Shown: piece by piece, positions 2,180 to 47,015 of the stretch | Position numbering within the stretch: position 1 is the stretch's first letter | Layout: each line of letters opens with the position of its first letter | Assembly (NCBI RefSeq): GCF_054482525.1 | Contig: NZ_CM137006.1 | Length of the DNA: 64,000 bases | Direction: 5' to 3' (one strand) | Notes under the pieces: generated by a model | What the model was told of the DNA's origin: nothing | Seen by the model: only the letters and a program-made list of their open reading frames with translations | The model's database searches: none | Made by a program: the position numbers and the translations under genes

Positions 2180-2244
2180 TGATCTTACCCAGCAATAGTG
2201 GACACGCGGCTAAGTGAGTAAACTCTCAGTCAGAGGTGACTCAC

Positions 2245-3407: not shown

Positions 3408-3440
3408 GCCTGTGTCCATATTACGTGGGTAGGATCAAGC

Positions 3441-3541: not shown

Positions 3542-3791
3542 AGGTAAGATGGGTTTTTGTCTGTAACGCATTGTTTTATATGGTTATATTTGATTTTTTG
3601 TAACGTGTGTTCATGTTTTCTTTGCTATGATTCATACTACTGCTATAGATGGCTAAAGATATAGGTTGTTGCTTAAATGTATATAGATAATTAAACGCCT
3701 TAATTTTTGATGAGATGTGTCATAAAGTGGAGTCTGTATGGCATAATTTTATGGGGCATGACATTTATACCATTCTTAAAAAGGAGATTAT

Positions 3792-5459: not shown

Positions 5460-5460
5460 C

Positions 5461-6462: not shown

Positions 6463-6473
6463 TGTTTAAGATG

Positions 6474-6499
6474 AATGCACCTATAGGGTGCATCATTTT
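6474..6499 (+). terminator. Putative intrinsic terminator of the cargo operon
   Basis: Short hairpin tgcacc-tata-gggtgca followed by tcatttt immediately after the second cargo gene. Confidence 0.35.
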
Positions 6500-6599
6500 G
6501 CATGTTTAAATATGTTCTCTATGTATGTGCGCTAGGCTTGACTGGCGCGCTTATACTGTGTTTACGCAACTGCATTAAAACTGACCCATGAAGCGGGCG

Positions 6600-6618
6600 G
6601 GCGAGGCGGGGAAAGCAC
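6600..6618. other. cos: P2 cos site (19-nt cohesive-end sequence)
   Basis: GGCGAGGCGGGGAAAGCAC matches the P2 cohesive end as I recall it, located between the accessory slot and the portal gene Q as in P2. Confidence 0.8.
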
Positions 6619-6787
6619 TGCGCGCTGGCGGTGGTGCTGATTTTATTTTTTCAGCGTCTGAGCGCGTCGTGATGGCGTTTGGATTGTTCGCCGGGGCGTT
6701 GGTGTGTATGCGGGCTGTTTTGTGCGGTGGTGAGCGTGTGAGGGCGTGATGACGGGGTGTAAAAAAGCCGCCCGCAGGCGGCGATGT

Positions 6788-7822
6788 TCAGCCGTTGTCA
6801 GTGTCCAGTGAGTAGTTTTTAAAGCGGATGACCTCCTGACCGAGCCAGCCGTTTATCTCGCGGATCCTGTCCTGTAACGGGATAAGCTCATTGCGGACAA
6901 AGACCTTTGCCACTTTCTCAATATCACCCAGCGACCCGACGTTCTCCGGCTTGCCGCCCATCAACTGAAAAGGGATGCGGTGCGCGTCCAGCAGGTCTGC
7001 GGCGCTGGCTTTTTTGATATTAAAAAAATCGTCCTTCGTTGCCACTTCACTGAGCGGGATAATTTTAATACCGTCGGCTTTTCCCTGTGGGGCGTAGAGA
7101 AACAGGTTTTTAAAGTTGTTGCGGCCTTTCGACTTCACCATGTTTTCGCGAAGCATTTCGATATCGTTGCGATCCTGCACGGCATCGGTGACGTACATGA
7201 TGTATCCGGCATGTGCGCCGTTTTCGTAATACTTGCGGCGGAACAGCGTGGCCGACTCATTCAGCCAGGCAGAGTTAAGGGCGCTGAGATATTCCGGCAG
7301 GCCGTACAGCTCCTGATTGATATCCGGCTCCAGCAGGTGAAACACGGAGCCGGGCGCGAAAGGTGTCGGCTCGTTGAAGGATGGCACCCACCAGTAAACA
7401 TCCTCCTCCACGCCACGGCGGGTATATTTTGCCGGTGAGGTTTCCAGTCTGATGACCTTACCGGTAGTGCTGTAGCGCTTTTCCAGAAACGCATTACCGA
7501 ACACCAGAAAATCCAGCACAAAGCGGCTGAAATCCTGCTGGGAAAGCCACGGGTGCGGGATAAACGTTGAGGCCAGAATATTACGTTTGACGTAAATCGG
7601 TGAGCTGTGATGCACGGCAGCACGCAGGCTTTTTGCCAGACCGGTAAAGCTGACCGGTGGCTCATACCATCTGCCGTTACTGATGCACTCGACGTAATCC
7701 AGAATATCACGGCGGTCGAGTACCGGCACCGGCTCACCAAAGGTGAATGCCTCCATTTTCGGGGCGCTGGCAGTCATTGTTTTCACCGCTGGCTGCGGTG
7801 TTTTCCCTTTTTTCTTACTCAT
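6788..7822 (-). CDS. Q: P2-like portal protein gpQ (344 aa)
   Basis: 344-aa ORF MSKKKGKTPQPAVKT..., size and position (leftward, next to cos) match P2 Q. Confidence 0.92.
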   Translation of the reverse strand: MSKKKGKTPQPAVKTMTASAPKMEAFTFGEPVPVLDRRDILDYVECISNGRWYEPPVSFTGLAKSLRAAVHHSSPIYVKRNILASTFIPHPWLSQQDFSRFVLDFLVFGNAFLEKRYSTTGKVIRLETSPAKYTRRGVEEDVYWWVPSFNEPTPFAPGSVFHLLEPDINQELYGLPEYLSALNSAWLNESATLFRRKYYENGAHAGYIMYVTDAVQDRNDIEMLRENMVKSKGRNNFKNLFLYAPQGKADGIKIIPLSEVATKDDFFNIKKASAADLLDAHRIPFQLMGGKPENVGSLGDIEKVAKVFVRNELIPLQDRIREINGWLGQEVIRFKNYSLDTDNG

Positions 7823-9594
7823 CAGTAAAACTCCAGAATGGTGGATGTCAGCGGGGTGCTGATACCGGCGGTGAGTGGCTCATTTAACAGGGCGTGCATG
7901 GTCGCCCAGGCGAGGTCGGCGTGGCTGGCTTCCTCGCTGCGGCTGGCCTCATAGGTGGCGCTGCGTCCGCTGCTGGTCATGGTCTTGCGGATAGCCATAA
8001 ACGAGCTGGTGATGTCGGTGGCGCTGACGTCATATTCCAGACAGCCACGGCGAATAACGTCTTTTGCCTTGAGCACCATTGCGGTTTTCATTTCCGGCGT
8101 GTAGCGGATATCGCGTGCGGCGGGATAGAACGAGCGAACGAGCTGGAACACGCCGACACCGAGGCCGGTGGCATCAATTCCGATGTATTCGACGTTGTAT
8201 TTTTCGGTGAGTTTGCGGATGGATTCAGCCTGGGTGGCAAAGTCCATGCCTTTCCACTGGTGACGCTCAAGTATTCTGAATTTGCCACCGGCCACCACCG
8301 GCGGTGCCAGCACCACGCATCCGGCACTGTCGCCACGGTGTGACGGGTCGTAACCAATCCAGACCGGGCGGGAGCCGAACGGATTCGCGGCAAACGGCGC
8401 ATAGTCTTCCCATTCTTCCAGCGTGTCGACCATGCAGCGTTGCAGCTCCTCGAACGGGAACACCGACGCCTTGTCGTCAACAAATTCACACATGAACAGG
8501 TTTTTAAAATCGTCGGCGCTGTTTTCGCGTTTAAGCTGCTCAATGTCGAACAGCGTGCAGCCACCTTTCAGGGCGTCCTCAATGGTGACAATCTGCCGCC
8601 ACTGACCGTCCGCACAGAGAAGCCCACCGGCAAGAGCGTTATGACTGACGTCGATTTCCACGCGTTCGGCGGCGCTGGCGCGTCCCCGGTTGAACAGTTC
8701 ACCCGACCAGAACGGGTAGGCGTCGTGCGCCAGCGTGGACGGGGTGGAGAAATAGGTCGAGCGCAGGTGACTCTGTGAGGCCATACCTGATGCCACCTTA
8801 CGCAGTACCTGAAAATTCGGTATCCAGAAAATCTCGTCGACGTACAGGTCGCCGTTATGGCTCTGCGCGGTGTTGGAGTTGGTGCCGAGAAAAATCAGTT
8901 TTGCGCCGTTATTGCCCAGGACAATCGGGTCACCGGTCAGGTCAACGTCAACCAGCCGGGCAAAGGCGATGATGTATTCGCGGAACACATACGCCTGCGT
9001 TTTACTGGCCGACAGAAAAATCTGGTTATGACCGGTTTTCAGGGCGCGCAGCAGCGCCTCGCGGGAAAAATAAAACGTCGCGCCAATCTGGCGGGATTTC
9101 AGGATATCGCGGATGCGGTGCTCAAGCCCGGCGCGATACCAGTGCAACTGATATTCGAAAGACTGCTCAAAGAAAATCTGCTCCAGCTTTTCGATAGCCT
9201 CGTCACTGAAAAAATTCTTTTTCGGTTTGCGCCGCCCGCCTTTGTTGCGGTTAGCGATGTTCGGATTAAGGTCTGCCTCGTTGCCGGTCTGGCTGTAGCG
9301 GTTTACCCGTGCCAGTCGTTCAATCTGGCGTCCGAGCAGGTCAATTTCCTTGAAGTCACCGCCGGTTTTCTGCGGTTTGATGATGAGCTGGGTCAGCCGC
9401 GCTTCCAGACTCATTTCGACACGGCTGATGGGGGCAACGCTGTCCCAGCCGTCGCGCTGTTTCCAGCTCTGCACCGTCGGGCGTTTCATCTGCAACATGG
9501 CGGCAATCTGCGGCACGGAAAACCCCTGCCAGTACAGCAGCGCCGCCTGACGACGCGGGTCGTGCAAAAGAGTGGTGTCTGTGGTGATGGTCAT
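7822..9594 (-). CDS. P: P2-like terminase large (ATPase) subunit gpP (590 aa)
   Basis: Start taken at MTITTDTT (ORF track begins 10 codons upstream); 590 aa as P2 gpP; divergent from O. Confidence 0.9.
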   Translation of the reverse strand: MTITTDTTLLHDPRRQAALLYWQGFSVPQIAAMLQMKRPTVQSWKQRDGWDSVAPISRVEMSLEARLTQLIIKPQKTGGDFKEIDLLGRQIERLARVNRYSQTGNEADLNPNIANRNKGGRRKPKKNFFSDEAIEKLEQIFFEQSFEYQLHWYRAGLEHRIRDILKSRQIGATFYFSREALLRALKTGHNQIFLSASKTQAYVFREYIIAFARLVDVDLTGDPIVLGNNGAKLIFLGTNSNTAQSHNGDLYVDEIFWIPNFQVLRKVASGMASQSHLRSTYFSTPSTLAHDAYPFWSGELFNRGRASAAERVEIDVSHNALAGGLLCADGQWRQIVTIEDALKGGCTLFDIEQLKRENSADDFKNLFMCEFVDDKASVFPFEELQRCMVDTLEEWEDYAPFAANPFGSRPVWIGYDPSHRGDSAGCVVLAPPVVAGGKFRILERHQWKGMDFATQAESIRKLTEKYNVEYIGIDATGLGVGVFQLVRSFYPAARDIRYTPEMKTAMVLKAKDVIRRGCLEYDVSATDITSSFMAIRKTMTSSGRSATYEASRSEEASHADLAWATMHALLNEPLTAGISTPLTSTILEFY

Positions 9595-9767
9595 GAATAC
9601 CTCGCCGTGATGAATACACGGCAAGGCTACTGAGTCGCGCCCCGCGATTCGCTAAGGTGCTGTTGTGTCAGTGATAAGCCATCCGGGACTGATGGCGGAG
9701 GATGCGCATCGTCGGGAAACTGATGCCGACATGTGACTCCTCTAATCACTATTCAGGACTCCTGACA

Positions 9768-10622
9768 ATGGCAAAAAAAGTCTCAAAATTCTTTCGTATC
9801 GGCGTTGAGGGTGACACCTGTGACGGGCGTGTCATCAGTGCGCAGGATATTCAGGAAATGGCCGAAACCTTTGACCCGCGAGTCTATGGTTGCCGCATTA
9901 ACCTGGAACATCTGCGCGGCATCCTGCCTGACGGTATTTTTAAGCGTTATGGCGATGTGGTCGAACTGAAGGCCGAAAAGATTGACGATGATTCGGCGCT
10001 GAAAGGCAAATGGGCGCTGTTTGCGAAAATCACCCCGACCGATGACCTTATCGCGATGAACAAGGCCGCGCAGAAGGTCTACACCTCAATGGAAATTCAG
10101 CCGAACTTTGCCAACACCGGCAAATGTTATCTGGTGGGTCTGGCCGTCACCGATGACCCGGCAAGCCTCGGCACGGAATACCTGGAATTCTGCCGCACGG
10201 CAAAACACAACCCCCTGAACCGCTTCAAATTAAGCCCTGAAAACCTGATTTCAGTGGCAACGCCCGTTGAGCTGGAATTTGAAGACCTGCCTGAAACCGT
10301 GTTCACCGCCCTGACCGAAAAGGTGAAGTCCATTTTTGGCCGCAAACAGGCCAGCGATGACGCCCGTCTGAATGACGTGCATGAAGCGGTGACCGCTGTT
10401 GCTGAACATGTGCAGGAAAAACTGAGCGCCACTGAGCAGCGCCTCGCTGAGATGGAAACCGCTTTTTCCGCACTTAAGCAGGATGTGACTGACAGGGCGG
10501 ATGAAACCAGCCAGGCATTCACCCGCCTGAAAAACAGTCTCGACCACACCGAAAGTCTGACCCAGCAGCGCCGCAGCAAGGCCACCGGTGGTGGCGGTGA
10601 CGCCCTGATGACGAACTGCTGA
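9768..10622 (+). CDS. O: P2-like capsid scaffolding protein gpO (284 aa)
   Basis: Start at MAKKVSKFF (ATG 9768); length 284 aa as P2 gpO. Confidence 0.9.
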   Translation: MAKKVSKFFRIGVEGDTCDGRVISAQDIQEMAETFDPRVYGCRINLEHLRGILPDGIFKRYGDVVELKAEKIDDDSALKGKWALFAKITPTDDLIAMNKAAQKVYTSMEIQPNFANTGKCYLVGLAVTDDPASLGTEYLEFCRTAKHNPLNRFKLSPENLISVATPVELEFEDLPETVFTALTEKVKSIFGRKQASDDARLNDVHEAVTAVAEHVQEKLSATEQRLAEMETAFSALKQDVTDRADETSQAFTRLKNSLDHTESLTQQRRSKATGGGGDALMTNC

Positions 10623-10680
10623 CCGGCGTCAGTCAGTCCGGGAAAACCTTCACGATTAACCCTTAATTTCAGGAAAAACT

Positions 10681-11754
10681 ATGCGCCAGGAAACCCGCTT
10701 TAAATTTAATGCCTACCTGTCCCGTGTTGCCGAACTGAACGGCATCGACGCCGGTGATGTGTCGAAAAAATTCACCGTTGAACCGTCGGTCACCCAGACC
10801 CTGATGAACACCATGCAGGAGTCCTCTGACTTTCTGACCCGCATCAACATTGTGCCGGTCAGCGAAATGAAAGGGGAAAAAATTGGCATCGGTGTCACCG
10901 GCTCCATCGCCAGCACCACCGACACCGCCGGTGGCACCGAGCGTCAGCCGAAGGACTTCTCGAAGCTGGCGTCAAACAAGTACGAATGCGACCAGATTAA
11001 CTTCGATTTTTATATCCGCTACAAAACGCTGGACCTGTGGGCGCGTTATCAGGATTTCCAGCTCCGTGTCCGTAACGCCATTATCAAACGCCAGTCCCTT
11101 GATTTAATCATGGCCGGTTTTAACGGCGTGAGGCGTGCCGAAACCTCTGACCGCAGCAGCAATCCGATGCTGCAGGATGTGGCGGTCGGCTGGCTGCAGA
11201 AATACCGCAATGAAGCCCCGGCGCGCGTGATGAGCAAGGTCACTGACGAGGAAGGGCACACCACCTCTGAGGTTATCCGCGTGGGTAAGGGCGGTGATTA
11301 TGCCAGCCTTGACGCACTGGTGATGGATGCGACCAACAACCTGATTGAGCCGTGGTATCAGGAAGACCCTGACCTTGTGGTGATTGTGGGACGTCAGCTA
11401 CTGGCGGACAAGTATTTTCCCATCGTCAACAAGGAGCAGGACAACAGCGAAATGCTGGCCGCTGACGTCATCATCAGCCAGAAACGCATCGGTAACCTGC
11501 CGGCGGTACGCGTCCCGTACTTCCCGGCGGATGCGATGCTCATCACAAAGCTGGAAAACCTGTCCATCTACTACATGGATGACAGCCATCGCCGCGTGAT
11601 TGAGGAAAACCCGAAACTCGACCGCGTGGAGAACTACGAGTCAATGAACATTGATTACGTGGTGGAAGACTACGCCGCCGGTTGTCTGGTGGAAAAAATT
11701 AAGGTCGGTGATTTCTCCACACTGGCTAAAGCGACCGCAGAGCCGGGAGCGTAA
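10681..11754 (+). CDS. N: P2-like major capsid protein gpN (357 aa)
   Basis: 357-aa ORF MRQETRFKFNAYLSRVAELNG...; size and order match P2 N. Confidence 0.93.
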   Translation: MRQETRFKFNAYLSRVAELNGIDAGDVSKKFTVEPSVTQTLMNTMQESSDFLTRINIVPVSEMKGEKIGIGVTGSIASTTDTAGGTERQPKDFSKLASNKYECDQINFDFYIRYKTLDLWARYQDFQLRVRNAIIKRQSLDLIMAGFNGVRRAETSDRSSNPMLQDVAVGWLQKYRNEAPARVMSKVTDEEGHTTSEVIRVGKGGDYASLDALVMDATNNLIEPWYQEDPDLVVIVGRQLLADKYFPIVNKEQDNSEMLAADVIISQKRIGNLPAVRVPYFPADAMLITKLENLSIYYMDDSHRRVIEENPKLDRVENYESMNIDYVVEDYAAGCLVEKIKVGDFSTLAKATAEPGA

Positions 11755-11757
11755 CCG

Positions 11758-12501
11758 ATGACGAGTCCCGCACAGCGCCACATGATGCGGGTCTCGGCAG
11801 CGATGACCGCGCAGCGGGAAGCCGCCCCGCTGCGACATGCAACTGTCTATGAGCAGATGCTGGTTAAGCTCGCCGCAGACCAGCGCACACTGAAAGCGAT
11901 TTATTCAAAAGAGCTGAAGGCCGCGAAAAAACGCGAACTGCTGCCGTTCTGGTTGCCGTGGGTGAACGGCGTGCTGGAGCAGGGCAAAGGTGCACAGGAT
12001 GACATTCTGATGACGGTCATGCTGTGGCGTCTGGATACCGGCGATATTGCCGGTGCGCTGGAGATTGCCCGTTATGCCCTGAAGTACGGTCTGACCATGC
12101 CGGGTAAACACCGCCGTACCCCGCCGTACATGTTCACCGAGGAGGTAGCGCTTGCGGCCATGCGTGCCCACGCTGCCGGTGAGTCTGTGGATACCCGCCT
12201 GCTGACGGAGACCCTTGAACTGACCGCCACGGCTGACATGCCTGATGAAGTGCGCGCAAAGCTGCACAAAATCACCGGTCTGTTTCTGCGTGACGGTGGT
12301 GATGCCGCCGGTGCGCTGGCTCACCTGCAACGTGCGACACAGCTCGACTGTCAGGCAGGTGTCAAAAAAGAGATTGAACGACTGGAGCGGGAGCTGAAAC
12401 CGAAGCCGGAGCCGCAGCCCAAAGCGGCCACCCGCGCCCCGCGTAAGACCCGGAGCGTGACACCGGCAAAACGTGGACGCCCGAAAAAGAAAGCCAGTTA
12501 A
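11758..12501 (+). CDS. M: P2-like terminase small/endonuclease subunit gpM (247 aa)
   Basis: 247-aa ORF following N; basic C-terminus; P2 gene order. Confidence 0.9.
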   Translation: MTSPAQRHMMRVSAAMTAQREAAPLRHATVYEQMLVKLAADQRTLKAIYSKELKAAKKRELLPFWLPWVNGVLEQGKGAQDDILMTVMLWRLDTGDIAGALEIARYALKYGLTMPGKHRRTPPYMFTEEVALAAMRAHAAGESVDTRLLTETLELTATADMPDEVRAKLHKITGLFLRDGGDAAGALAHLQRATQLDCQAGVKKEIERLERELKPKPEPQPKAATRAPRKTRSVTPAKRGRPKKKAS

Positions 12502-18801: not shown

Positions 18802-19405
18802 TTCGCGACTGCTGCCGACCGGCTCATCGCCGCTTGAAGTCGCCGCCGCAAAAGCCTGTGCGGAAATTGAAAAAACGCCGGTCAGTATTCGTGAGCTGTG
18901 GAACCCGGATACCTGTCCGGCAAATCTGCTGCCGTGGCTGGCGTGGTCATTTTCGGTTGACCGCTGGGATGATAAGTGGCCGGAAGCGACAAAACGCGCT
19001 GTTATCCGCGATGCGTATTTCATTCACTGCCATAAGGGCACTATAGGCGCAATCCGGCGTGTGGTGGAGCCGCTCGGCTATCTGATTGAGGTGAGGGAGT
19101 GGTGGCAGCTCAACGAGGAGCCGGGGACGTTCCGCATCGTTGTTGGCGTGCTTGAGCAGGGTATTACCGAGGAAATGTATCAGGAGCTGGAGCGCCTCGT
19201 TGCTGATGCAAAACCGGCAAGCCGCCATCTGACGGGACTGGCTATCAGTTTAAGTACAACCGGCAACATTTTTGCCAGTGCGGGATGCTATCACGGTGAC
19301 GCCCTGACGGTTTATCCCTACACCCCGGAGGCCATTATTGTCGGAGGGGATTATTTCCCGGCCTCGGCCATTCATTTAATTGATAACCTGAGAGTAAACG
19401 CATGA
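18794..19405 (+). CDS. I: P2-like baseplate protein gpI
   Basis: ORF overlapping J end and H start; exact start codon uncertain. Confidence 0.8.
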   Translation: MSDSRLLPTGSSPLEVAAAKACAEIEKTPVSIRELWNPDTCPANLLPWLAWSFSVDRWDDKWPEATKRAVIRDAYFIHCHKGTIGAIRRVVEPLGYLIEVREWWQLNEEPGTFRIVVGVLEQGITEEMYQELERLVADAKPASRHLTGLAISLSTTGNIFASAGCYHGDALTVYPYTPEAIIVGGDYFPASAIHLIDNLRVNA

Positions 19406-20700
19406 CAGTGAAATACTACGCCATTCTGACTAATCAGGGCGCAGCACGGCTGGCTAACGCGACGATGCTCGGCAGTAAGCTGAATCTGACGCAAATGGCC
19501 GTTGGTGATGCGAATGGTGTCTTGCCGACACCAGACCCGGCACAGACAAAACTGATTAATCAGAAACGCATCGCGCCGCTGAATCTTCTGAGTGTTGACC
19601 CGAACAACCAGAGCCAGATTATTGCGGAGCAAATCATCCCTGAGAACGAGGGCGGATTCTGGATCCGTGAGATTGGGCTTTATGATGATGAAGGCGTACT
19701 CATTGCGGTGGCGAACTGCCCGGAAACGTACAAACCGCAGTTACAGGAAGGCAGCGGTCGTACCCAGACTATCCGCATGATTCTGGTTGTCACGAATACC
19801 GAAGCCATCACGCTGAAAATCGACCCGTCGGTGGTACTGGCGACCCGTAAATACGTGGATGATAAAGTCCTGGAATTAAAGCTGTATGTGGATGACCAGA
19901 TGAGAAACCACATTGCCGCACAGGATCCTCATACCCAGTATGCACAGAAACATAATCCGACATTTACCGGAGAACCAAAAGCGCCGACGCCTGCCGCAGG
20001 AAATAACACCACGCGGATTGCGACCACTGCGTTTGTACAGGCCGCTATTACCGCTCTGATTAACGGTGCCCCTGACACGCTGGACACACTGAAAGAAATT
20101 GCCGCAGCTATCAACAATGACCCGAAATTCAGCACCACCATTAACAATGCGCTGTCAGGTAAGCAGCCACTGGATGAGACGCTGACTCATTTGAGTGGAA
20201 AGGATGTTGCCGGTCTTCTCGCATACCTTGGTTTGGGAGAAGGCTCTGCATTGCCGGTTGGTGTGCCTGTTCCGTGGCCTTCAGCCACTCCGCCAACGGG
20301 GTGGCTAAAATGTAACGGAGCAGTATTTTCTTCTGAAAAGTACCCAAATCTGGCAAAGGCTTACCCAACATTAAAATTACCAGATTTACGCGGTGAATTT
20401 ATTCGTGGCTGGGATGATGGGCGCGGGATTGACTCTGGTCGTAACTTATTATCTGCACAGAATGATGCAATTCAGAATATTGTTGGTTCTTTTGGGCGTA
20501 CCCAGCTTTTTAGAGACGTACTTAGTTCAGGGCCATTTAGTCAACATGGGCAAGTATTATCTACAGGTCTAAAGGAAGCCGAAATTATTGAGGGTTATGG
20601 CGCTTATAACTGGACATTCGACGCATCTCGCTCAGTTCGCACAGCATCTGAAACCCGCTCCCGTAACATCGCCTTTAATTATATTGTGAGGGCTGCATGA
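19402..20700 (+). CDS. H: Tail fibre protein gpH (432 aa): P2-like constant N-terminus fused to the currently expressed variable C-terminal cassette
   Basis: N-terminus MTVKYYAILTNQGAARLANA...; C-terminal region (WPSATPPTGWLKCNGAVFSSEKYPNLAKAY...LPDLRGEFIRGW) is tail-collar-like; inversion crossover site lies at codons ~276-280. Confidence 0.88.
   Translation: MTVKYYAILTNQGAARLANATMLGSKLNLTQMAVGDANGVLPTPDPAQTKLINQKRIAPLNLLSVDPNNQSQIIAEQIIPENEGGFWIREIGLYDDEGVLIAVANCPETYKPQLQEGSGRTQTIRMILVVTNTEAITLKIDPSVVLATRKYVDDKVLELKLYVDDQMRNHIAAQDPHTQYAQKHNPTFTGEPKAPTPAAGNNTTRIATTAFVQAAITALINGAPDTLDTLKEIAAAINNDPKFSTTINNALSGKQPLDETLTHLSGKDVAGLLAYLGLGEGSALPVGVPVPWPSATPPTGWLKCNGAVFSSEKYPNLAKAYPTLKLPDLRGEFIRGWDDGRGIDSGRNLLSAQNDAIQNIVGSFGRTQLFRDVLSSGPFSQHGQVLSTGLKEAEIIEGYGAYNWTFDASRSVRTASETRSRNIAFNYIVRAA
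20228..20242. repeat. Left inversion crossover site of tail-fibre segment (inside H)
   Basis: TTGGTTTGGGAGAAG; perfect inverted copy at 22160-22174; weak resemblance to gix/hix half-sites. Confidence 0.6.
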
Positions 20701-21302
20701 TAAGTAAAGCTGTATTAAATAATGAACTCATCGCCACAAAGGCCGGAGACATTACCGTTTATAATTATGATGGTGAAACACGGGAATATATTTCCACATC
20801 AACTGAATATCTTGCTGTGGGTGTCGGTATCCCGGCATGTTCCTGTTTAGATGCTCCTGGCTCATATAAAGCTGGTTATGCAATTTGCCGTTCTGCAGAT
20901 TTTAACTCATGGGAATATGTGCCAGACCATCGCGGTGAAATCGTCTATAGCACCGAAACAGGAGAATCAAAAGAAATCACAGTTCCGGGTGATTACCCTG
21001 AAAATACAACCACTATCGCCCCGTTAACGTCATACGATAAATGGGATGGTGAGAAATGGGTGACCGATACTGAGGCACAGCATAACGCCGCAGTAGACGC
21101 GGCAGAAGTACGGCGCCAGTCACTGATTGATGCTGCTATGGCTTCCATTAGTCTGATTCAGCTGAAATTGCAGGCCGGGCGGAAGCTGACGCAGGCAGAA
21201 ACAACCCGGCTTAACGCTGTGCTGGATTACATTGACGCGGTGACTGCAACAGATACCAGCACCGCGCCGGATGTCATCTGGCCTGAACTACCGGAGGCGT
21301 AG
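20697..21302 (+). CDS. G: Tail fibre assembly chaperone gpG (Tfa), currently expressed orientation
   Basis: 201-aa ORF directly after H; C-terminal ...TATDTSTAPDVIWPELPEA typical of Tfa proteins. Confidence 0.85.
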   Translation: MISKAVLNNELIATKAGDITVYNYDGETREYISTSTEYLAVGVGIPACSCLDAPGSYKAGYAICRSADFNSWEYVPDHRGEIVYSTETGESKEITVPGDYPENTTTIAPLTSYDKWDGEKWVTDTEAQHNAAVDAAEVRRQSLIDAAMASISLIQLKLQAGRKLTQAETTRLNAVLDYIDAVTATDTSTAPDVIWPELPEA

Positions 21303-21717
21303 GCCATTCAATATCTGGAGCACTGGCGGTATCAACCAGTTCCAGTGCGTCCAGATAATCCAGCCATAAATTATATTGTTCCAGCTCGTAACCTTTCAGA
21401 CGACCAATAGCAGCTTTGCCAGGCCACTGATGGGTATTGATGTAGGTATTGACTTCTGAAACCAAAGATATCTTTTTCATTTCAGCCGCCAGCATCTCAT
21501 CCTCTTTTGAAGGCGGCGGGGAATTAATCCATATTGGCCGTCCTGAACTGTCAGCGCCAATTTCTTTCCCTTCTGGATGCAGCCCAAGAAATTGCTCATA
21601 TGTTTCTCTGGTAATTTCAATAACATCATCAGGAAGCGTTCCCGCATCCTCATATTCTGGAAACAATTCTTGCAGATAAAAACTTTTACTTGCGGGTGAA
21701 AAGAATACTGAGTTCAT
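21274..21717 (-). CDS. Alternative tail fibre assembly chaperone (Tfa') for the inverted orientation
   Basis: 147-aa reverse-strand ORF; C-terminus ...DTASAPDIEWPTPPVVQAR parallels gpG; convergent with G and overlapping its 3' end. Confidence 0.75.
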   Translation of the reverse strand: MNSVFFSPASKSFYLQELFPEYEDAGTLPDDVIEITRETYEQFLGLHPEGKEIGADSSGRPIWINSPPPSKEDEMLAAEMKKISLVSEVNTYINTHQWPGKAAIGRLKGYELEQYNLWLDYLDALELVDTASAPDIEWPTPPVVQAR

Positions 21718-21719
21718 TC

Positions 21720-22159
21720 TTACCGTCCAATGATTAACGCTGAGACGCTGGTATCTGAAGGAAAGGCTGCATTCAGTGGTTTGTCGACTTTGAACACAAT
21801 CGTATTATTCCCCCTGACAGCGGCAAAAGAACAAACCGCCGTCGCGTATGAACCTGTAATATTACTGGATACACCACCATAAGCTGTTGTTGATACCAGA
21901 GGGATAACGCCCAGCACCTTATTAGGAAATACAAAGGGCAATGTGGCTGTGGCAATATAAGACTTATTAGAACCTGTAATGGCATAAGCATTATCAGTCA
22001 TTCCATTCATCGCCACTGGACCGCTTATACTTACAGTAACCATCTGAATGATTAGCCCGTCAGGTTGACGAATCACAAAATTTCCATTGCCACCAGTAAC
22101 CGTCCAGAAAGACATATCAGGGATTTGGTTTTCCCCGTTGCCCACATTTCGTTTTGCCG
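21720..22159 (-). CDS. Alternative (currently silent) tail-fibre C-terminal cassette, promoterless, expressed only after inversion
   Basis: Reverse-strand reading frame continuous from the right crossover site; shares the GLGE junction frame with H; no independent start expected. Confidence 0.65.
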
Positions 22160-22174
22160 CTTCTCCCAAACCAA
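22160..22174. repeat. Right inversion crossover site of tail-fibre segment
   Basis: CTTCTCCCAAACCAA, exact reverse complement of 20228-20242. Confidence 0.6.
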
Positions 22175-22241
22175 CGTTTAAGAAAATGCAGAGATTACGG
22201 CTAACTGGCATCATCCCCGGTTTTTATTCAGGGGATCCATC

Positions 22242-22835
22242 ATGCTTATTGGCTATGTCCGCGTGTCAACAAATGACCAGAATACGGAATTGCAGCGTAA
22301 CGCGCTGGAGTGTGCAGGATGTGAGCTTATTTTTGAGGATAAAATCAGCGGCACGAAGTCCGACCGACCGGGACTGAAAAAACTGCTCAGGACATTATCG
22401 GAGGGGGATACACTGGTGGTCTGGAAGCTGGACCGGCTGGGGCGTAGTATGCGGCATCTGGTCATTCTGGTTGAGGAACTGCGCGAACGCGGCGTTAATT
22501 TTCGCAGCCTGACGGATGCTATTGATACCAGCACGCCGATGGGGCGTTTTTTCTTTCATGTGATGGGTGCCCTGGCTGAAATGGAGCGAGAACTCATTGT
22601 CGAGAGGACACGCGCCGGACTGGAAGCGGCCAGAGCCAAAGGTCGTATTGGTGGCAGACGACCGAAACTCACCGCGAGTGAGTGGGAGCAGGCCGGGCGT
22701 TTGCTGGCTGCAGGGGAGTCACGTCAACGCGTGGCACTGATTTTTGATATTGGTCTGTCCACGCTCTATAAAAAATTTCCCTCATCAGCGACAAAGAATA
22801 AATTGTGTCATCCCTTAGCCAACCGGGACAAATAG
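22242..22835 (+). CDS. Serine recombinase, DNA invertase of the Pin/Gin/Hin/Cin family (197 aa)
   Basis: N-terminal catalytic domain MLIGYVRVSTNDQNTELQRNAL (active-site Ser in YVRVST), C-terminal HTH; positioned just outside the right crossover site. Confidence 0.9.
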   Translation: MLIGYVRVSTNDQNTELQRNALECAGCELIFEDKISGTKSDRPGLKKLLRTLSEGDTLVVWKLDRLGRSMRHLVILVEELRERGVNFRSLTDAIDTSTPMGRFFFHVMGALAEMERELIVERTRAGLEAARAKGRIGGRRPKLTASEWEQAGRLLAAGESRQRVALIFDIGLSTLYKKFPSSATKNKLCHPLANRDK

Positions 22836-24097: not shown

Positions 24098-24616
24098 ATG
24101 GCAATGCCGCGCAAACTCAAGTTAATGAACGTCTTTCTGAACGGCTACAGCTATCAGGGCGTCGCGAAGTCCGTCACGCTACCAAAACTGACCCGTAAGC
24201 TCGAAAACTATCGCGGTGCGGGGATGAACGGCAGCGCACCGGTAGACCTCGGCCTTGATGACGATGCGCTGTCAATGGAGTGGTCGCTCGGTGGCTTCCC
24301 GGATTCGGTTATCTGGGAGCTTTACGCCGCAACCGGTGTGGATGCCGTACCGATTCGTTTTGCAGGCTCTTACCAGCGCGACGATACCGGCGAAACGGTG
24401 GCCGTCGAGGTGGTCATGCGTGGACGTCAGAAAGAAATCGACACCGGCGAGGGCAAACAGGGAGAAGACACCGAGTCGAAAATCTCCGTGGTCTGCACCT
24501 ATTTCCGGCTGACGATGGACGGTAAGGAGCTGGTCGAAATCGACACCATCAACATGATTGAGAAGGTGAACGGCGTCGACCGGCTGGAGCAACACCGCCG
24601 CAATATCGGCCTGTGA
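24098..24616 (+). CDS. FII: P2-like tail tube protein gpFII (172 aa)
   Basis: 172-aa ORF after FI. Confidence 0.92.
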   Translation: MAMPRKLKLMNVFLNGYSYQGVAKSVTLPKLTRKLENYRGAGMNGSAPVDLGLDDDALSMEWSLGGFPDSVIWELYAATGVDAVPIRFAGSYQRDDTGETVAVEVVMRGRQKEIDTGEGKQGEDTESKISVVCTYFRLTMDGKELVEIDTINMIEKVNGVDRLEQHRRNIGL

Positions 24617-29197: not shown

Positions 29198-29278
29198 TGT
29201 CTATTATTTATCTGTTTGTTTTATAAGGATAAATTAACTAAAATGGCACCATCAACAAAACCGGAAGAGGTGCTCGCG

Positions 29279-29497
29279 ATGTTTCATTGTCCTTTATGCC
29301 AGCATGCCGCACATGCGCGTACAAGCCGCTATATCACTGACACGACAAAAGAGCGTTATCACCAGTGCCAGAACGTGAATTGCAGCGCCACGTTCATCAC
29401 TTATGAGTCGGTACAGCGATACATCGTGAAGCCGGGAGAAGTCCACGCCGTAAGGCCGCACCCGTTGCCGTCAGGGCAGCAAATTATGTGGATGTAA
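29279..29497 (+). CDS. ogr: Ogr zinc-finger late-gene transcriptional activator (72 aa)
   Basis: MFHCPLCQHAAHARTSRYITDTTKERYHQCQNVNCSATF with Cys4 zinc finger; the provided ORF starts 21 codons upstream. Confidence 0.9.
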   Translation: MFHCPLCQHAAHARTSRYITDTTKERYHQCQNVNCSATFITYESVQRYIVKPGEVHAVRPHPLPSGQQIMWM

Positions 29498-29510
29498 TTA
29501 CATACAGGAA

Positions 29511-29534
29511 GCCCCTCAGTCGAGGGGCTTTTTT
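29511..29534 (+). terminator. Rho-independent terminator after ogr
   Basis: gcccctc-agtc-gaggggc hairpin followed by TTTTTT. Confidence 0.7.
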
Positions 29535-29598
29535 GTCGATGTGGTCAATGTGTGGACGTGACCAGAAATAAATCCTTTTATTTCATTGTATTACGCGT

Positions 29599-29625
29599 AA
29601 AAAATAAGCCCGTGTAAGGGAGATT
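29599..29625. other. attR: P2 att core (prophage right junction, attR) next to yegQ
   Basis: AAAAAATAAGCCCGTGTAAGGGAGATT matches the 27-bp P2 attachment core as I recall it; lies between ogr and the first host gene. Confidence 0.75.
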
Positions 29626-29769
29626 ACACAGGCTAAGGAGGTGGTTCCTGGTACAGCTAGCATTTTATGGGTTATGTTTTTCAGCGAAACGGATGATAAC
29701 CTTAATAAATGCAGCTGTATGTGATCGGTTTCTAAGAATTTTCCATCCGGGAAAAATAATCGAAATTAA

Positions 29770-31131
29770 TCACTTACCGTGGGGGTTACGCGTGGTTTCC
29801 CCGGAGAAATTACGCATCAGGAGCGCGTAATTTAGCTCAAGATCCTGCGGCACCGGGATCCACACAGTATAACCATCGCCTGGTGCGACCGGCATAGCTT
29901 CACCTTTGGTGTTTTCCATGTGCTCAAGGGTAAAGTTAATGTTCCCTTGCGGCGTCATCAGCTCAAGGCTGTCGCCAACGGAGAATTTATTTTTCACCGC
30001 TACCGCCGCGAGGTCGCCCTTGCGCTCACCGGTAAACTCACCAACAAACTGCTGGCGGTCAGAAACTGAATAACCGTATTCGTAGTTCTGATAATCGTCG
30101 TGAGTATGACGACGCAGGAAACCTTCGGTATAGCCACGATGCGCCAGACCTTCCAGGGTTTCCAGCAGGCTGGTATCGAACGGTTTGCCCGCAGCGGCGT
30201 CATCGATAGCTTTACGATAAACCTGTGCGGTGCGTGCGCAATAGTAGAAAGATTTGGTACGGCCTTCGATTTTCAGCGAATGCACGCCCATTTTGGTCAG
30301 GCGTTCTACATGGGCGATGGCGCGCAGATCTTTCGAGTTCATGATGTAAGTGCCGTGCTCATCTTCAAACGCGGTCATATACTCGCCCGGACGCTGGGCT
30401 TCTTCGATCATAAACACTTTGTCAGTTGGTGCGCCGATACCCAGCGTCGGCTCAACATTTTGCACCGGAATCGGCTCGTACTTGTGTACGATGTTGCCAA
30501 CGTCATCTTCTTTCCCTTCCTGGACGTTGTACTCCCAGCGGCAGGCGTTGGTGCAGGTGCCCTGGTTCGGGTCGCGCTTGTTGATATAGCCAGAGAGCAG
30601 GCAGCGACCGGAGTAGGCCATGCACAGCGCGCCGTGAACGAAGATCTCGATCTCCATATCCGGCACCTGATTACGAATCTCTTCAATCTCTTCCAGCGAC
30701 AGCTCGCGAGAGAGGATCACGCGGGTCAGTCCCATTTGCTGCCAGAATTTCACCGTCGCCCAGTTCACGGCGTTAGCCTGCACCGAGAGGTGGATCGGCA
30801 CTTCAGGGAAGTGCTCACGCACCAGCATAATCAGCCCTGGATCAGACATAATCAGCGCATCCGGCCCCATTTCCACCACCGGTTTCAGGTCACGGATAAA
30901 GGTTTTCAGCTTGGCGTTGTGCGGTGCAATGTTGACCACGACATAAAACTTTTTCCCCAGCGCATGGGCTTCATTAATGCCGAGCTGAAGATTTTCGTGG
31001 TTGAATTCGTTGTTGCGCACACGCAGGGAGTAACGCGGCTGGCCCGCATAAACAGCATCTGCGCCATAAGCGAAAGCGTAACGCATATTTTTCAGCGTTC
31101 CCGCCGGGGAAAGGAGTTCCGGTTTAAACAT
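29770..31131 (-). CDS. yegQ: U32-family peptidase-like protein YegQ (453 aa)
   Basis: 453-aa ORF with U32 family features; conserved neighbour of yegP/baeR. Confidence 0.95.
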   Translation of the reverse strand: MFKPELLSPAGTLKNMRYAFAYGADAVYAGQPRYSLRVRNNEFNHENLQLGINEAHALGKKFYVVVNIAPHNAKLKTFIRDLKPVVEMGPDALIMSDPGLIMLVREHFPEVPIHLSVQANAVNWATVKFWQQMGLTRVILSRELSLEEIEEIRNQVPDMEIEIFVHGALCMAYSGRCLLSGYINKRDPNQGTCTNACRWEYNVQEGKEDDVGNIVHKYEPIPVQNVEPTLGIGAPTDKVFMIEEAQRPGEYMTAFEDEHGTYIMNSKDLRAIAHVERLTKMGVHSLKIEGRTKSFYYCARTAQVYRKAIDDAAAGKPFDTSLLETLEGLAHRGYTEGFLRRHTHDDYQNYEYGYSVSDRQQFVGEFTGERKGDLAAVAVKNKFSVGDSLELMTPQGNINFTLEHMENTKGEAMPVAPGDGYTVWIPVPQDLELNYALLMRNFSGETTRNPHGK

Positions 31132-32513: not shown

Positions 32514-33913
32514 ACTTCTCTCTGTAAATCCCGTTCCAGCGGTAACTCTACTGTAATGCTTACCCCGCCAAAAGGCGAATGGGCAGCAATAATGCGGCCA
32601 TTATGTGCTTCAACAATGTTCAGGCAAATCGCCAGCCCCAGCCCGGAACCGCCGCTGGCGCGGTTCCGGGAACCTTCGGTGCGATAAAAACGTTCAAACA
32701 ATTTTTGTAGCTGATCGTCACTGACGCCCGGCGCGCTGTCAGCAAAGGTCAGGCGCACCGTTTTGTCGTGCTGCTCGGCAGAGATTTTCAGGCTGCCGCC
32801 GCTGTCAGTGTAGCGCAGGCTGTTTTCCAGTAAGTTATTGAATAACTGCATTAAACGGTCGCGATCGCCAAATACAGTAATACTGTCTGGCAGGGAAAAT
32901 TGCAGTTTCAGGCCACGGCTGGCGAATCGTTCGCGAAATGCGCCGCCCGCCACTTCCAGCAGTGGGATCAAATCTACCGGTGCTTTTTGATAGGCGAGAG
33001 CGCCTTCATCAGACATCGACAACTGATGCAGATCGTCAACCAGTTTGGTCAGTGTACCGACCTCCGCCTGTAAAGACGCCACCGTCTCCGGCGTGAATTT
33101 ACGCACGCCATCCTGAATGGCTTCCAGTTCACCGCGCAGCACCGCTAATGGCGTACGCAGTTCGTGAGAAATATCGGCCATAAAATCGCGGCGCATTTGC
33201 TGGTTTTTCTCCAGCGTGCTGGCGAGCTGGTTGAAGTCTTGCGCCAGTTTGCCCAGTTCATCTTCACTGGTGGGCGTCACGCGGGTAGTGAAATCGCCCG
33301 CCGCCAGTTTGTGCGTGCCGTCCACCAGCCGTTTTACCGGTGCCAGCAAACCACGCGCCAGCAGAAAGGTAGCGAGTGCCGCGAGTAACGTTGCCAGAGC
33401 GACAATCAGCCAGCTGGTTTGCCGCTGTTGTTTATCGAAATTGATATCAGTATTGCGGGTCAGTCGCTCAACAGGGGAGGCAATCACCGCACCCACTTCC
33501 GCACCGTTGACCAGAATGGGTCGCCGTGTACCGTCAGGTGGAATCGGCGCTCGCGGACCAACCAGCACTTTGTTGTTTTGATCAACCACCCAGAACTGGG
33601 TACGCCAGCCGTGCGGTGGCATACCCGGGCCGGGTTTATCTTCCGAATTATCGTGTTCAAATGAACGCAGGATCTGAAAGACAAAGCGATCATTGTTGCG
33701 CAGGAAGCGCCAGTTACCATGCTGCGCATACTGCTCGCCAAGCGCATCACTTAACAGTTGTAATCGCTGTTCATTACCATGCTTGATGTAATCAATAAAG
33801 CCACGCTCAAAACTGATACGCACCGCCCAGTGCATACTGATCAGCAAGACAATGCAGGTGGCGAAAATCGCCAGAAACAGTTTGCCGGTAATACCGGGTC
33901 GCCAGAACTTCAT
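32510..33913 (-). CDS. baeS: Sensor histidine kinase BaeS (467 aa)
   Basis: TM sensor, HAMP, His kinase (HELRTPL) and ATPase domains; overlaps baeR start. Confidence 0.96.
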
Positions 33914-42999: not shown

Positions 43000-43150
43000 C
43001 TGAAACGGGAAAGCCCCTCCCGAGGAAGGGGCCATAAATAAGGAAAGGGTCATGATGAAGCTACTCATCATCGTGGTGCTCTTAGTCATTAGCTACCCAG
43101 CATACTAAGACTACCAGGGCGGGGGAAACCCCGCTCTACCCTCACTCCTG
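43000..43150 (-). ncRNA. sibB: SibB antisense sRNA (type I antitoxin), approximate boundaries
   Basis: By established ibs/sib organisation the antisense RNA fully overlaps ibs; reverse-strand hairpin plus U-rich tract near 43009-43031 is consistent with its terminator. Confidence 0.5.
43052..43108 (+). CDS. ibsB: Type I toxin IbsB (18-aa hydrophobic peptide)
   Basis: ATGATGAAG... encodes MMKLLIIVVLLVISYPAY; preceded by AAGGAGG-containing leader. Confidence 0.85.
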   Translation: MMKLLIIVVLLVISYPAY

Positions 43151-43329
43151 AAAGTATGCCTTCACGATAAGATTGTCAATCTGCAGGCTTTGCAGTCTGC
43201 GATCCTGCCAGCAAATATTCTTTGCGAGACGTTACGCAATAATCACACTGGAAACTATTTTATCCGCAAGTCAGCGATAGACTGCATACAGGGCGAAAGG
43301 AGGTAAGCCGACGATTTCAGCGGGACGCT

Positions 43330-43480
43330 GAAACGGGAAACCCTCTCCCGGAGAAGAGGGCTTTTAATAAGGAAAGGGTTATGATGAAGCACGTCATCAT
43401 ACTGGTGATACTCTTAGTGATTAGCTTCCAGGCTTACTAAGAACACCAGGGGGAGGGGGAAACCTCTCCCTAACCCTCAC
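43330..43480 (-). ncRNA. sibA: SibA antisense sRNA (type I antitoxin), approximate boundaries
   Basis: Antisense to ibsA by analogy; hairpin at ~43338-43360. Confidence 0.5.
43381..43440 (+). CDS. ibsA: Type I toxin IbsA (19-aa hydrophobic peptide)
   Basis: Encodes MMKHVIILVILLVISFQAY. Confidence 0.85.
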   Translation: MMKHVIILVILLVISFQAY

Positions 43481-43660
43481 TCCTGAAATTATGTCACTCC
43501 GCCCTTAGTGTCAATCGACGGCTCTCCGTTCTTGCGAGGCGAATAGCAAAATTTTCTGCGCCGCCGGGCCTAATTCTGAAAGTTTCTTCGTTTGCTCTTA
43601 TTTCATTGTTGCAGTCGGTATGATACCGGACCTCGATAATTCTCTAAGAAAGGATTTCTT

Positions 43661-44320: not shown

Positions 44321-45078
44321 GCTGGCGTCTGGTCTATGCATCAACCGTTGGAACGTCGCACATCAGCGCGGACTTGCCTTGCCAGGATGCCTGCCAGATG
44401 CAGGTTGCCTGGTTAAATGACCAGCAGCCATTATTGTCGGTATTTGTCGCTGATGGCGCAGGCAGTGTCTCGCAGGGTGGCGAAGGCGCGATGCTCGCCG
44501 TCAATGAAGCGATGGCTTATATGTCGCAAAAAGTGCAGGGCGGGGAATTGGGGCTTAATGATGTCCTCGCCACGGATATTGTGCTGACCATTCGTCAGCG
44601 ACTTTTTGCCGAGGCAGAGGCCAAAGAATTAGCGGTTCGCGATTTTGCCTGCACATTTCTGGGACTGATTTCATCGCCTGACGGCACCTTGATTATGCAG
44701 ATTGGCGATGGCGGCGTGGTGGTAGATTTGGGTCACGGTCTGCAATTGCCTCTCACGCCGATGGTGGGTGAATATGCCAATATGACGCACTTCATTACCG
44801 ACGAAGATGCCGTTTCCAGACTGGAAACTTACACCAGTACTGAGCGTGCGCATAAAGTTGCAGCATTTACGGATGGTATTCAGAGGCTGGCGTTAAATAT
44901 GTTGAATAATTCTCCGCATGTGCCTTTTTTTACCCCGTTTTTCAATGGACTGGCGTCAGCAACGCAGGAACAACTCGATTTATTACCTGAATTGTTAAAG
45001 CAGTTTTTGTCCGGCCCGGCGGTAAACGAGCGTACCGATGATGATAAAACGTTGGCACTGGCGCTGTGGTTACCATGA
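44317..45078 (+). CDS. pphC: PP2C-like protein phosphatase YegK/PphC (253 aa)
   Basis: 253-aa ORF overlapping the yegL stop; conserved partner of the yegI kinase. Confidence 0.9.
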
Positions 45079-47015
45079 AACCCACTTTATATACTGCTAC
45101 TGGTGAGTGCGTTACGCCAGGCTGTGAACTGGGCAAAGGTGGCGAAGGCGCGGTTTATGATATCGAGGAGTTTGTCGATAGCGTCGCCAAGATTTATCAC
45201 ACGCCGCCACCCGCCTTAAAACAGGACAAACTTGCCTTTATGGCTGCGACAGCTGATGCGCAGTTGCTGAATTATGTCGCCTGGCCGCAGGCAACGCTTC
45301 ACGGTGGACGAGGCGGAAAAGTTATCGGTTTTATGATGCCAAAAGTTTCTGGTAAAGAACCGATTCATATGATCTATAGCCCGGCACATCGTCGCCAGAG
45401 TTACCCTCATTGTGCGTGGGATTTTCTACTCTATGTTGCGCGCAATATTGCGTCATCTTTTGCTACGGTTCACGAGCACGGGCATGTCGTGGGTGACGTA
45501 AACCAGAACAGCTTTATGGTAGGCCGTGACAGCAAAGTGGTATTGATTGATAGCGACTCCTTTCAGATTAACGCCAATGGAACGCTGCATTTATGCGAAG
45601 TCGGCGTGTCGCATTTTACGCCGCCAGAGCTGCAAACATTGCCATCATTTGTCGGCTTTGAACGCACCGCGAATCACGATAATTTTGGCCTTGCGTTGCT
45701 GATTTTTCACGTCTTGTTTGGTGGTCGGCATCCTTATTCCGGTGTACCGCTTATCTCTGATGCGGGTAATGCGCTGGAGACGGATATTGCCCATTTCCGT
45801 TATGCCTACGCGTCAGATAATCAGCGACGTGGTTTAAAACCGCCGCCACGATCGATACCGCTGTCGATGTTACCGGGCGATGTTGAAGCCATGTTTCAGC
45901 AGGCATTCACGGAAAGTGGCGTGGCAACCGGGCGTCCGACGGCAAAAGCGTGGGTATCAGCACTGGATTCTCTACGCCAACAGTTAAAGAAATGTACCGT
46001 TTCGGCAATGCATGTTTATCCTGCTCATTTGACCGACTGCCCGTGGTGTACGCTGGATAATCAAGGCGTTATCTATTTTATTGATCTCGGCGAAGAGGTC
46101 ATTACCACCAGTGGTGATTTTGTGCTGGCGAAAGTCTGGGCGATGGTGATGGCGTCAGTAGCACCGCCAGCATTGCAATTGCCATTACCCGATCATTTCC
46201 AACCGACTGGCCGGCCGCTTCCTTTAGGCCTGTTACGGCGCGAATACATCATTCTGATTGAGATCGCACTGTCAGCTTTATCGCTGTTGCTTTGCGGTCT
46301 TCAGGCAGAACCGCGTTATATTATTTTGGTTCCTGTGCTGGCGGCTATCTGGATTATTGGCAGTCTGACAAGCAAAGCTTATAAAGCAGAAATCCAGCAA
46401 CGCCGTGAGGCATTTAATCGCGCGAAAATGGACTATGACCATTTAGTCAGCCAGATCCAGCAGGTGGGCGGGCTGGAAGGTTTTATCGCCAAACGGACGA
46501 TGCTCGAAAAAATGAAGGACGAAATGCTCGGGTTACCGGAAGAAGAAAAACGTGCTCTGGCAGCACTTCACGACACCGCAAGGGAACGGCAGAAGCAGAA
46601 GTTTCTGGAGGGATTTTTTATTGATGTTGCCTCTATTCCCGGCGTTGGCCCTGCGCGTAAAGCGGCGTTACGGTCCTTTGGTATTGAAACAGCAGCGGAT
46701 GTTACCCGTCGTGGGGTTAAGCAAGTGAAAGGGTTTGGTGATCATCTGACCCAGGCGGTTATCGACTGGAAAGCGAGTTGCGAACGCCGTTTTGTGTTCA
46801 GGCCGAACGAAGCGGTAACGCCTGCAGACAGACAAGCGGTAATGGCAAAAATGACCGCCAAACGACATCGGCTGGAATCGGCGTTGACTGTCGGCGCGAC
46901 AGAGTTGCAGCGATTCCGCCTTCATGCTCCAGCACGGACCATGCCGTTGATGGAACCGTTACGTCAGGCGGCAGAAAAACTGGCTCAGGCGCAGGCTGAT
47001 TTAAGCCGTTGCTGA
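45066..47015 (+). CDS. yegI: Ser/Thr protein kinase-like protein YegI (649 aa) with C-terminal membrane/coiled-coil region
   Basis: Kinase-like N-terminal domain (HGHVVGDVNQNSFMV catalytic-loop-like, DSDSF), TM segments, C-terminal region. Confidence 0.92.
   Translation: MVTMKPTLYTATGECVTPGCELGKGGEGAVYDIEEFVDSVAKIYHTPPPALKQDKLAFMAATADAQLLNYVAWPQATLHGGRGGKVIGFMMPKVSGKEPIHMIYSPAHRRQSYPHCAWDFLLYVARNIASSFATVHEHGHVVGDVNQNSFMVGRDSKVVLIDSDSFQINANGTLHLCEVGVSHFTPPELQTLPSFVGFERTANHDNFGLALLIFHVLFGGRHPYSGVPLISDAGNALETDIAHFRYAYASDNQRRGLKPPPRSIPLSMLPGDVEAMFQQAFTESGVATGRPTAKAWVSALDSLRQQLKKCTVSAMHVYPAHLTDCPWCTLDNQGVIYFIDLGEEVITTSGDFVLAKVWAMVMASVAPPALQLPLPDHFQPTGRPLPLGLLRREYIILIEIALSALSLLLCGLQAEPRYIILVPVLAAIWIIGSLTSKAYKAEIQQRREAFNRAKMDYDHLVSQIQQVGGLEGFIAKRTMLEKMKDEMLGLPEEEKRALAALHDTARERQKQKFLEGFFIDVASIPGVGPARKAALRSFGIETAADVTRRGVKQVKGFGDHLTQAVIDWKASCERRFVFRPNEAVTPADRQAVMAKMTAKRHRLESALTVGATELQRFRLHAPARTMPLMEPLRQAAEKLAQAQADLSRC

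Follow-up and report, generated by a model that had tools for sequence, protein, structure and literature searches.

The right junction of a P2-type prophage at the cyaR small RNA gene of the Escherichia coli chromosome

The window, by which we mean the whole 64-kb stretch of DNA that was analysed, begins at the start codon of a P2-type gene A and runs through the prophage late region into the chromosome. Read from left to right, the junction is made up of gene D, ogr, the ogr terminator, a P arm carrying Int arm-type sites, an IHF region and a 27-bp att core, followed on the opposite strand by the small RNA gene cyaR and by yegQ (Table 1). With yegQ, the protein-coding genes of the host begin on the right side of the prophage. 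Except at 45069-45120, the chromosome is collinear with that of K-12 (28983-64000, about 97% identity).

Table 1. Coordinates of the prophage, junction and flanking features, numbered from the first base of the window
Feature	Position	Strand	Evidence or remark
Visible part of P2-type (Peduovirus) prophage	1-29625	+	Gene A start codon to end of attR core; blastn and tblastn against P2
IS3 element, 1258 bp, in gene A after codon 727 of 761	2180-3437	+	Pfam HTH_Tnp_1 and rve; P2 collinearity broken at 2180-3440
cos site, joined cohesive ends	6600-6618	.	P2 33546-33593 matches window 6571-6618; P2 1-399 matches window 6600-7000
Inverted repeats, 27 nt, AAACCAAGGTTT-type crossover sites	20216-20242 and 22160-22186		Inside gene H
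Assembly protein	21274-21717	-	
Alternative H C-terminus	21720-22214	-	
Gin/Cin/Hin-type serine invertase	22242-22835		
Gene D, tail/late control D protein, 387 aa	28034-29197	+	tblastn, 98.5% aa identity to full-length P2 gpD
ogr, 72 aa, zinc-finger activator of P2 late transcription	29279-29497	+	100% aa identity to P2 Ogr; NCBIfam PRK09678, 177.6 bits
Rho-independent terminator of ogr and the F operon	29511-29536	+	P2 terminator annotation 24265-24288, offset +5243
Int arm-type binding sites (P arm), direct repeats TGTGGTCA / TGTGGACG	29536-29563	.	Identical to P2 'Int P arm' 24293-24320
IHF binding region of attP kept in attR	29567-29600	.	P2 'IHF' feature 24324-24357
att core, attR copy, 27 bp	29599-29625	.	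Int-mediated strand-exchange site; exact match to the P2 attP core
cyaR (ryeE) sRNA gene	29602-29687	-	Rfam RF00112, 100.7 bits (gathering score 47), model positions 1-85 of 85
yegQ / trhP (tRNA U34 hydroxylase)	29770-31131	-	NCBIfam PRK15452, 875 bits; RefSeq annotation of matching genomes agrees

The ogr terminator is formed by the hairpin AGCCCCTC-AGTC-GAGGGGCT followed by a T-run, with a folding energy of -21.4 kcal/mol (z = -4.0). A terminator upstream of the core had been proposed in a first-pass annotation made from the sequence alone, and the P2 annotation and RNA folding agree in placing it there. It was not listed on the + strand by a simple consensus terminator scan, probably because the stem extension runs into the T-run. 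The two direct repeats of the P arm are predicted to be bound by Int in attR; the consensus described for such arm sites is tgTGGaCa (PMC3448106). In the adjoining IHF region, five substitutions relative to P2 were found, at 29586, 29588 and 29593-29595, and the same variant is present in the attR of K-12 and of ETEC1701. This region may likewise be a binding site for IHF. The P arm and the IHF region both lie between the ogr terminator and the core, which gives the junction, at the sequence level, the make-up of a P2-type attR. The terminators of ogr and cyaR face each other across the P arm.

The core itself, AAAAAATAAGCCCGTGTAAGGGAGATT on the + strand, occurs once in the window. No second copy was found there with up to three mismatches allowed, and none is expected by chance either. 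All 27 positions are identical to P2 (AF063097, 24356-24382), where the stretch is annotated as attP and as 'Int attP core'. In a megablast search of 50,697 phage records, similarity to P2 covered 29207-29625 and ended exactly at the last base of the core. From the chromosomal side, the genomes with an empty site (about 79% of 5,426 complete E. coli genomes) aligned only from 29591 or 29599 rightwards, and the core is present in them. A six-way alignment was built from the attR sequences of the window, K-12 and ETEC1701, the ETEC1701 attL, the P2 attP and the E. coli C122 attB. The core is common to attB, attL, attR and attP, the classic POB'/BOP'/POP'/BOB' pattern is obtained, and the switch from phage similarity (P arm) to host similarity (B') falls at the core. 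P2 attP and the attB of E. coli C share the 27-bp core with the junction, and the Int arm sites and the order terminator-P arm-IHF-core are the same. An unoccupied allele with a single core thus exists in the species: in C122 the empty site lies between yegR and cyaR/yegQ, in the order yegR-core-cyaR-yegQ. The first-pass annotation had identified the 27-mer downstream of ogr as the P2 att core and had set the prophage/chromosome boundary at this position. Both assignments are borne out, the former by exact identity to the annotated attP core and to attB, the latter by the end of the P2 match at 29625 and the start of the empty-site alignments; the comparison with P2 attP and the K-12 region that it had proposed as a check returned an exact core and the full set of four att types.

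P2 Int is a tyrosine recombinase which, aided by IHF, swaps strands between the attP core and the identical 27 bp of the chromosome. At this locus, exchange by Int and IHF would have joined the phage P arm, with the ogr terminator, the Int arm sites and the IHF site, through the core to host DNA. The segment 29511-29625 is read, at a probability of about 0.95, as the attR of a P2-type prophage that occupies locI, the primary attachment site for P2 in E. coli. The junction is the product of P2-type site-specific recombination. Its value for annotation is that the right prophage boundary is fixed at 29625. An attR at this textbook site is already known; the site has been documented, and the configuration is common to hundreds of sequenced E. 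coli. The arrangement gpD'-ogr-att-yegQ, or more of the prophage, was found in 1,124 of the 5,426 complete genomes (21%), and a full gene D stands at the junction in 726 of them (13%). None of the 5,426 has the same sequence as the window; the best match covers 90% at 98.7%.

The core had been described in the first-pass annotation as directly abutting yegQ. This has to be corrected: the stop codon of yegQ, at 29770, is 144 bp away, and most of the gap is occupied by cyaR. The last 24 nt of cyaR (29602-29625) are part of the att core and comprise the 3' half of the terminator stem and the U tail. The stem, read from 29634 to 29607 and followed by TATTTTTT, straddles the core/host boundary and folds at -15.9 kcal/mol (z = -5.1). 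The core brought in by the phage does not differ from that of the host, so that cyaR is restored intact at attR upon integration. On the other side of the prophage, integration leaves a promoter-less 24-nt duplicate of cyaR at attL, where, by RNA folding, the core and P' arm no longer form the cyaR hairpin. As read from the sequence, cyaR is the actual integration target and survives the insertion of the prophage, and it is predicted to be expressed in the lysogen; CyaR sRNAs are typified by CRP-dependent expression and Hfq binding. The gene is often left unannotated; the present analysis flags it both as the target and as surviving integration. P2-type integrases have been described as integrating mostly between genes (PMC3448106), a description that overlooks cyaR. 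The 'cyaR RNA' has been tabulated as an insertion site for Wphi2 (P2) in E. coli W, for ogr-D' in K-12 and for P2*B in E. coli B (Archer et al. 2011, PMC3032704). Wphi2 and P2*B are P2-type and share the site with the window prophage; the likeness is that given by their row in this table.

Other temperate phages are known that insert at the 3' ends of small RNA genes and restore them: 186 and HP1 use tRNA genes, Fels-2 and SopE-phi use ssrA, and P2-type 'Rybb' prophages lie at rybB (PMC3448106, PMC3032704). In the window prophage, too, the att core repeats the 3' end of a gene for a structured RNA, and the gene survives. Its target is the terminator of an Hfq-type sRNA, however, and not a tRNA-like structure. 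In Kluyvera, cyaR and the inner 21 nt of the core are conserved (L013, L015, L016, L017 and L018). In Kluyvera intermedia (L016, 875-999), a diverged P2-type P arm and terminator are joined to the core and cyaR, indicating a putative P2-like prophage at cyaR in another genus. Unrelated DNA was found at that side of cyaR in the other Kluyvera species (L013, L015, L017 and L018).

The left junction lies outside the window. Draft assemblies of the same sequence, including GCA_029445955.1 and GCA_036915595.1, differ from window positions 1-12217 at one base. In one such draft contig (L007), an exact copy of the 27-bp core was found at 6316-6342, equivalent to window coordinates -3684 to -3658. Over the 10 kb upstream, the order in this contig is gat operon, yegS, yegR, core, int, C, cox, orf78, B, orf80-83 and A. 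The int gene (6422-7435, 337 aa) adjoins the attL core and encodes a protein with 100% identity to P2 Int; none of the genes int, C, cox and B is shortened. From these matching assemblies, attL of the window prophage would be located about 3.68 kb to the left of base 1. Both L007 and ETEC1701 have a directly oriented copy of the core on the int side, and in the latter two exact cores flank a P2-type prophage between yegR and yegQ. The first-pass annotation had named a missing second copy as grounds for rejecting its reading and had expected the left junction outside the window; the exact copy beside int in the same-sequence assemblies agrees with that expectation. With the left end taken from L007, the prophage is about 33.28 kb long, or about 32.0 kb without IS3.

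The late genes are kept in full. When all P2 proteins were searched by tblastn, Q, P, O, N, M, L, X, Y, K, lysA/B/C, R, S, orf30, V, W, J, I, FI, FII, E, T, U, D and ogr were found to be full length, with 82-100% amino acid identity. The cohesive ends annotated in P2 (cosL 1-19, cosR 33575-33593) are joined in the prophage. The prophage of the window lineage differs from P2 in the five IHF-region substitutions, in the repressor C, which determines immunity (65% amino acid identity in L007), and in Cox (84%), with Int at 100% in the same contig. In addition, cargo not found in P2 stands in place of its tail-fibre H/G and Z/fun region and of its old/tin region.

Window positions 3523-6570 stand in place of P2 orf91/tin/old. 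They hold, at 3792-6462 on the + strand, a two-gene cargo, the products of which are an AAA_15/AAA_21 ATPase of 555 aa and a protein of 333 aa. The best PADLOC matches of the ATPase were NsnB (1.9e-52), HEC-03B, PDC-M55A and AriA; its 333-aa partner had no match in Pfam, PADLOC, PHROGs or NCBIfam. The pair is probably an anti-phage defence module in a known P2 accessory-gene slot. In the second replaced region, 19231-22814 takes the place of the C-terminus of H, of G and of Z/fun. An invertible tail-fibre segment was recognised at 20216-22835, where P2 has Z/fun; its components are included in Table 1.

Gene A is interrupted. It begins at window base 1 and is collinear with P2 to codon 727 of 761, at which point an IS3 element has been inserted. 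The assignment to IS3 follows from the length of about 1258 bp, an orfA with a helix-turn-helix (HTH) domain, an orfB with an rve domain, terminal inverted repeats and a 3-bp target duplication. Read from the sequence, the ends are TGATC...GATCA and the duplication is AGC, at 2177-2179 and 3438-3440. The 34 C-terminal residues of gpA are cut off and replaced by IS-derived residues. The displaced tail was detected by tblastn at 3431-3538 and is 68% identical to P2, as against 98% for the rest of the protein. None of the 5,426 complete genomes has the gpA::IS3 junction. When the gpA-IS3 fusion was looked up as an exact protein sequence, it was found in draft assemblies, of which GCA_029445955.1 and GCA_036915595.1 are two. 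Given its absence from all of the complete genomes, the IS3 event appears to be recent and lineage-specific. In the P2 annotation, gpA is the essential replication nickase, and its function is likely to have been lost through IS3. The element is therefore flagged here for prophage annotation. In an intact Peduovirus all essential P2 genes would be full length, whereas here gene A is split. The prophage is structurally complete, at about 33.3 kb, yet probably impaired in replication and on the way to becoming defective. Its description as nearly complete in the first-pass annotation accordingly stands for the size and the full-length late genes and needs correction for gene A.

At the same locus, K-12 has yegR, a 213-nt gpD fragment (yegZ), ogrK, attR, cyaR and yegQ, and one full core only. 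That K-12 has only a remnant at this place, as stated in the first-pass annotation, is correct. The remnant measures 639 bp from its left joint to the end of attR, as compared with the whole late region in the window, and this agrees with the cryptic K-12 remnant of P2 that Barreiro and Haggard-Ljungquist reportedly described in 1992 as 639 nt long. Gene D is kept only from about the equivalent of window position 28983 onwards. The left joint lies inside the attL core, 18 bases of which (AAAAAATAAGCCCGTGTA) are fused to gpD at the equivalent of 28983. A GTGT microhomology was noted at this core/gpD fusion (L003, 3988-4005). The joint hints at an aberrant Int-mediated deletion, or a microhomology-mediated one, rather than at random decay. 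Locus and orientation are the same as in the window, and the two attR sequences do not differ over the P arm, the core and the adjoining part of cyaR. Compared with the window prophage, K-12 shows a much later stage of decay at the same site, reduced to gpD'-ogrK-attR. A comparison of prophage and K-12 remnant at cyaR has already been published (PMC3032704).

The overlap of the core with cyaR might suggest that the 27-mer is merely a conserved cyaR terminator, its match to P2 saying nothing about a recombination junction at this position. The persistence of the inner 21 nt together with cyaR in those Kluyvera species with unrelated DNA on the other side is in keeping with such a view. Nevertheless, P arm similarity (97% to P2) reaches the core and host similarity begins there, and these breakpoints contradict a terminator-only reading. 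Moreover, attL, attR, attP and attB recombine cleanly on paper, and a core can be both the cyaR terminator and the crossover site, the two statements being compatible. A terminator without a junction is thus highly improbable, and the segment is best read as attR. Given an attR at this site, the prophage of the window and the K-12 remnant could descend from one ancestral integration, which would make the window the literal 'before' of the remnant. They share the site, the orientation and the IHF-region variant beside the attR core. Such a descent is doubtful, however. The window and K-12 are 96.75% identical in their prophage part and 97.26% identical in their chromosomal part, and identity to free P2 is 96.43%; values so nearly equal do not discriminate between shared and independent acquisition. 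In 13-21% of genomes the site holds P2-type prophages with differing cargo, the IS3 junction is confined to the window lineage, and P2 reintegrates readily at an intact core. The statement of the first-pass annotation that this strain 'retains' the prophage therefore holds as far as a P2-type prophage at the same site is concerned, while the implied common descent with the K-12 remnant is doubtful.

A further reading concerns the state of the prophage, which could be fully functional, that is, competent for excision, replication and plaque formation, so that the junction would be that of a live temperate phage and not a first step of decay. None of the structural, lysis and late-control genes of P2 is truncated, and cos is present. 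In the same-sequence contig L007, the int product is identical to P2 Int, the genes C, cox and B follow, and neither core has a mismatch. In gpA, moreover, the C-terminal tail is poorly conserved, and its loss might be tolerated. Against this, IS3 splits at codon 727 of 761 a gene whose product is annotated in P2 as essential for replication, and the tail is swapped for residues derived from the element. A fully functional prophage is on balance unlikely, and attR of a structurally complete prophage with impaired replication is preferred. The 'before' state of decay seen by the first-pass annotation is to be qualified in the same way: with IS3 already in gene A, the prophage is probably not fully functional.

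Outside the window, an island of about 790 bp carrying yegR was found in C122 (L005, 2206-3027), K-12 (L003), ETEC1701 (L004) and L007 (about 5500-6342). In E69, which is labelled E. coli (L010), the order is yegS, 86 bp, core and cyaR, and yegR is missing; a junction of the E69 type may occur in no more than one of the 5,426 complete genomes. The left edge of the island corresponds to a decayed core and the start of a P' arm, with 18 of 27 core positions matching and 38 of 57 over core and P' arm together. When the comparison was anchored at the breakpoint, the match was significant: among 6,702 windows spanning the P2 genome it scored highest, and its score was not reached in any of 5,000 shuffles. 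When the left part of the island was aligned to the P' arm by unrestricted local alignment, the match was not significant on its own, and 113 of 1000 shuffles scored as well. The same left edge is found in the window's own lineage (L007). At the right edge, a decayed P arm leads into the intact core. The sequence to the left of the core in the empty attB resembles the P arm of P2, TCGATGTGGTCAATG...ACCAGA.ATA, with a local alignment score of 21 compared with 9 +/- 1.3 for shuffles (maximum 17). One Escherichia sp. genome also keeps the IHF part in the attB flank.

On the simplest view of these edges, to which a slight preference is given, the 'empty' attB beside cyaR represents the attR of a far more ancient P2-type prophage that has been almost wholly deleted and of which the relic of about 0.8 kb holds yegR. 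Selection on the cyaR terminator would have kept the right-hand core of this fossil element intact. As to a phage origin of yegR and the island interior, tblastn with the P2 proteins gave nothing. Among the 50,697 phage records, the sole matches to the interior by tblastn and blastn were vB_EcoM-720R8 and 'Phage TP', and both were rejected as prophage-flank artefacts; a match of YegR to phrog_21109 is probably an artefact of the same kind. The 'Phage TP' record (AY639599.1, L002) contains yegR', ogr and yegQ ('putative protease') at K-12-like spacing and is a chromosomal P2 remnant locus, not a phage genome. No statement of the fossil-attR reading was found in the literature covered, which takes in older work incompletely. 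If the reading is true, the locus would record three generations of P2 integration and decay, namely the fossil island, the K-12 remnant and the IS3-bearing prophage, and the sRNA terminator would have served as a lasting landing site for P2 through repeated rounds of integration and decay. The fossil attR is the only part of the present analysis that may add to phage-host evolution.

Elsewhere in the window, two Sib antitoxin sRNAs lie upstream of mdtA in the sibA/sibB region (43037-43179 and 43366-43514, - strand), and the colanic-acid wza operon is preceded by a JUMPstart element at 58551-58589 (+ strand); both are ordinary and K-12-like. At 45069-45120, about 50 bp are present where K-12 has about 786 bp (yegJ region). 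Among the database entries, two metagenome-assembled genomes labelled 'Citrobacter sp.' (L011) and 'Collinsella sp.' (L012) contain E. coli-type attL/attR junctions with arms that match C122 and P2 almost exactly, and these are probably mis-binned E. coli contigs.
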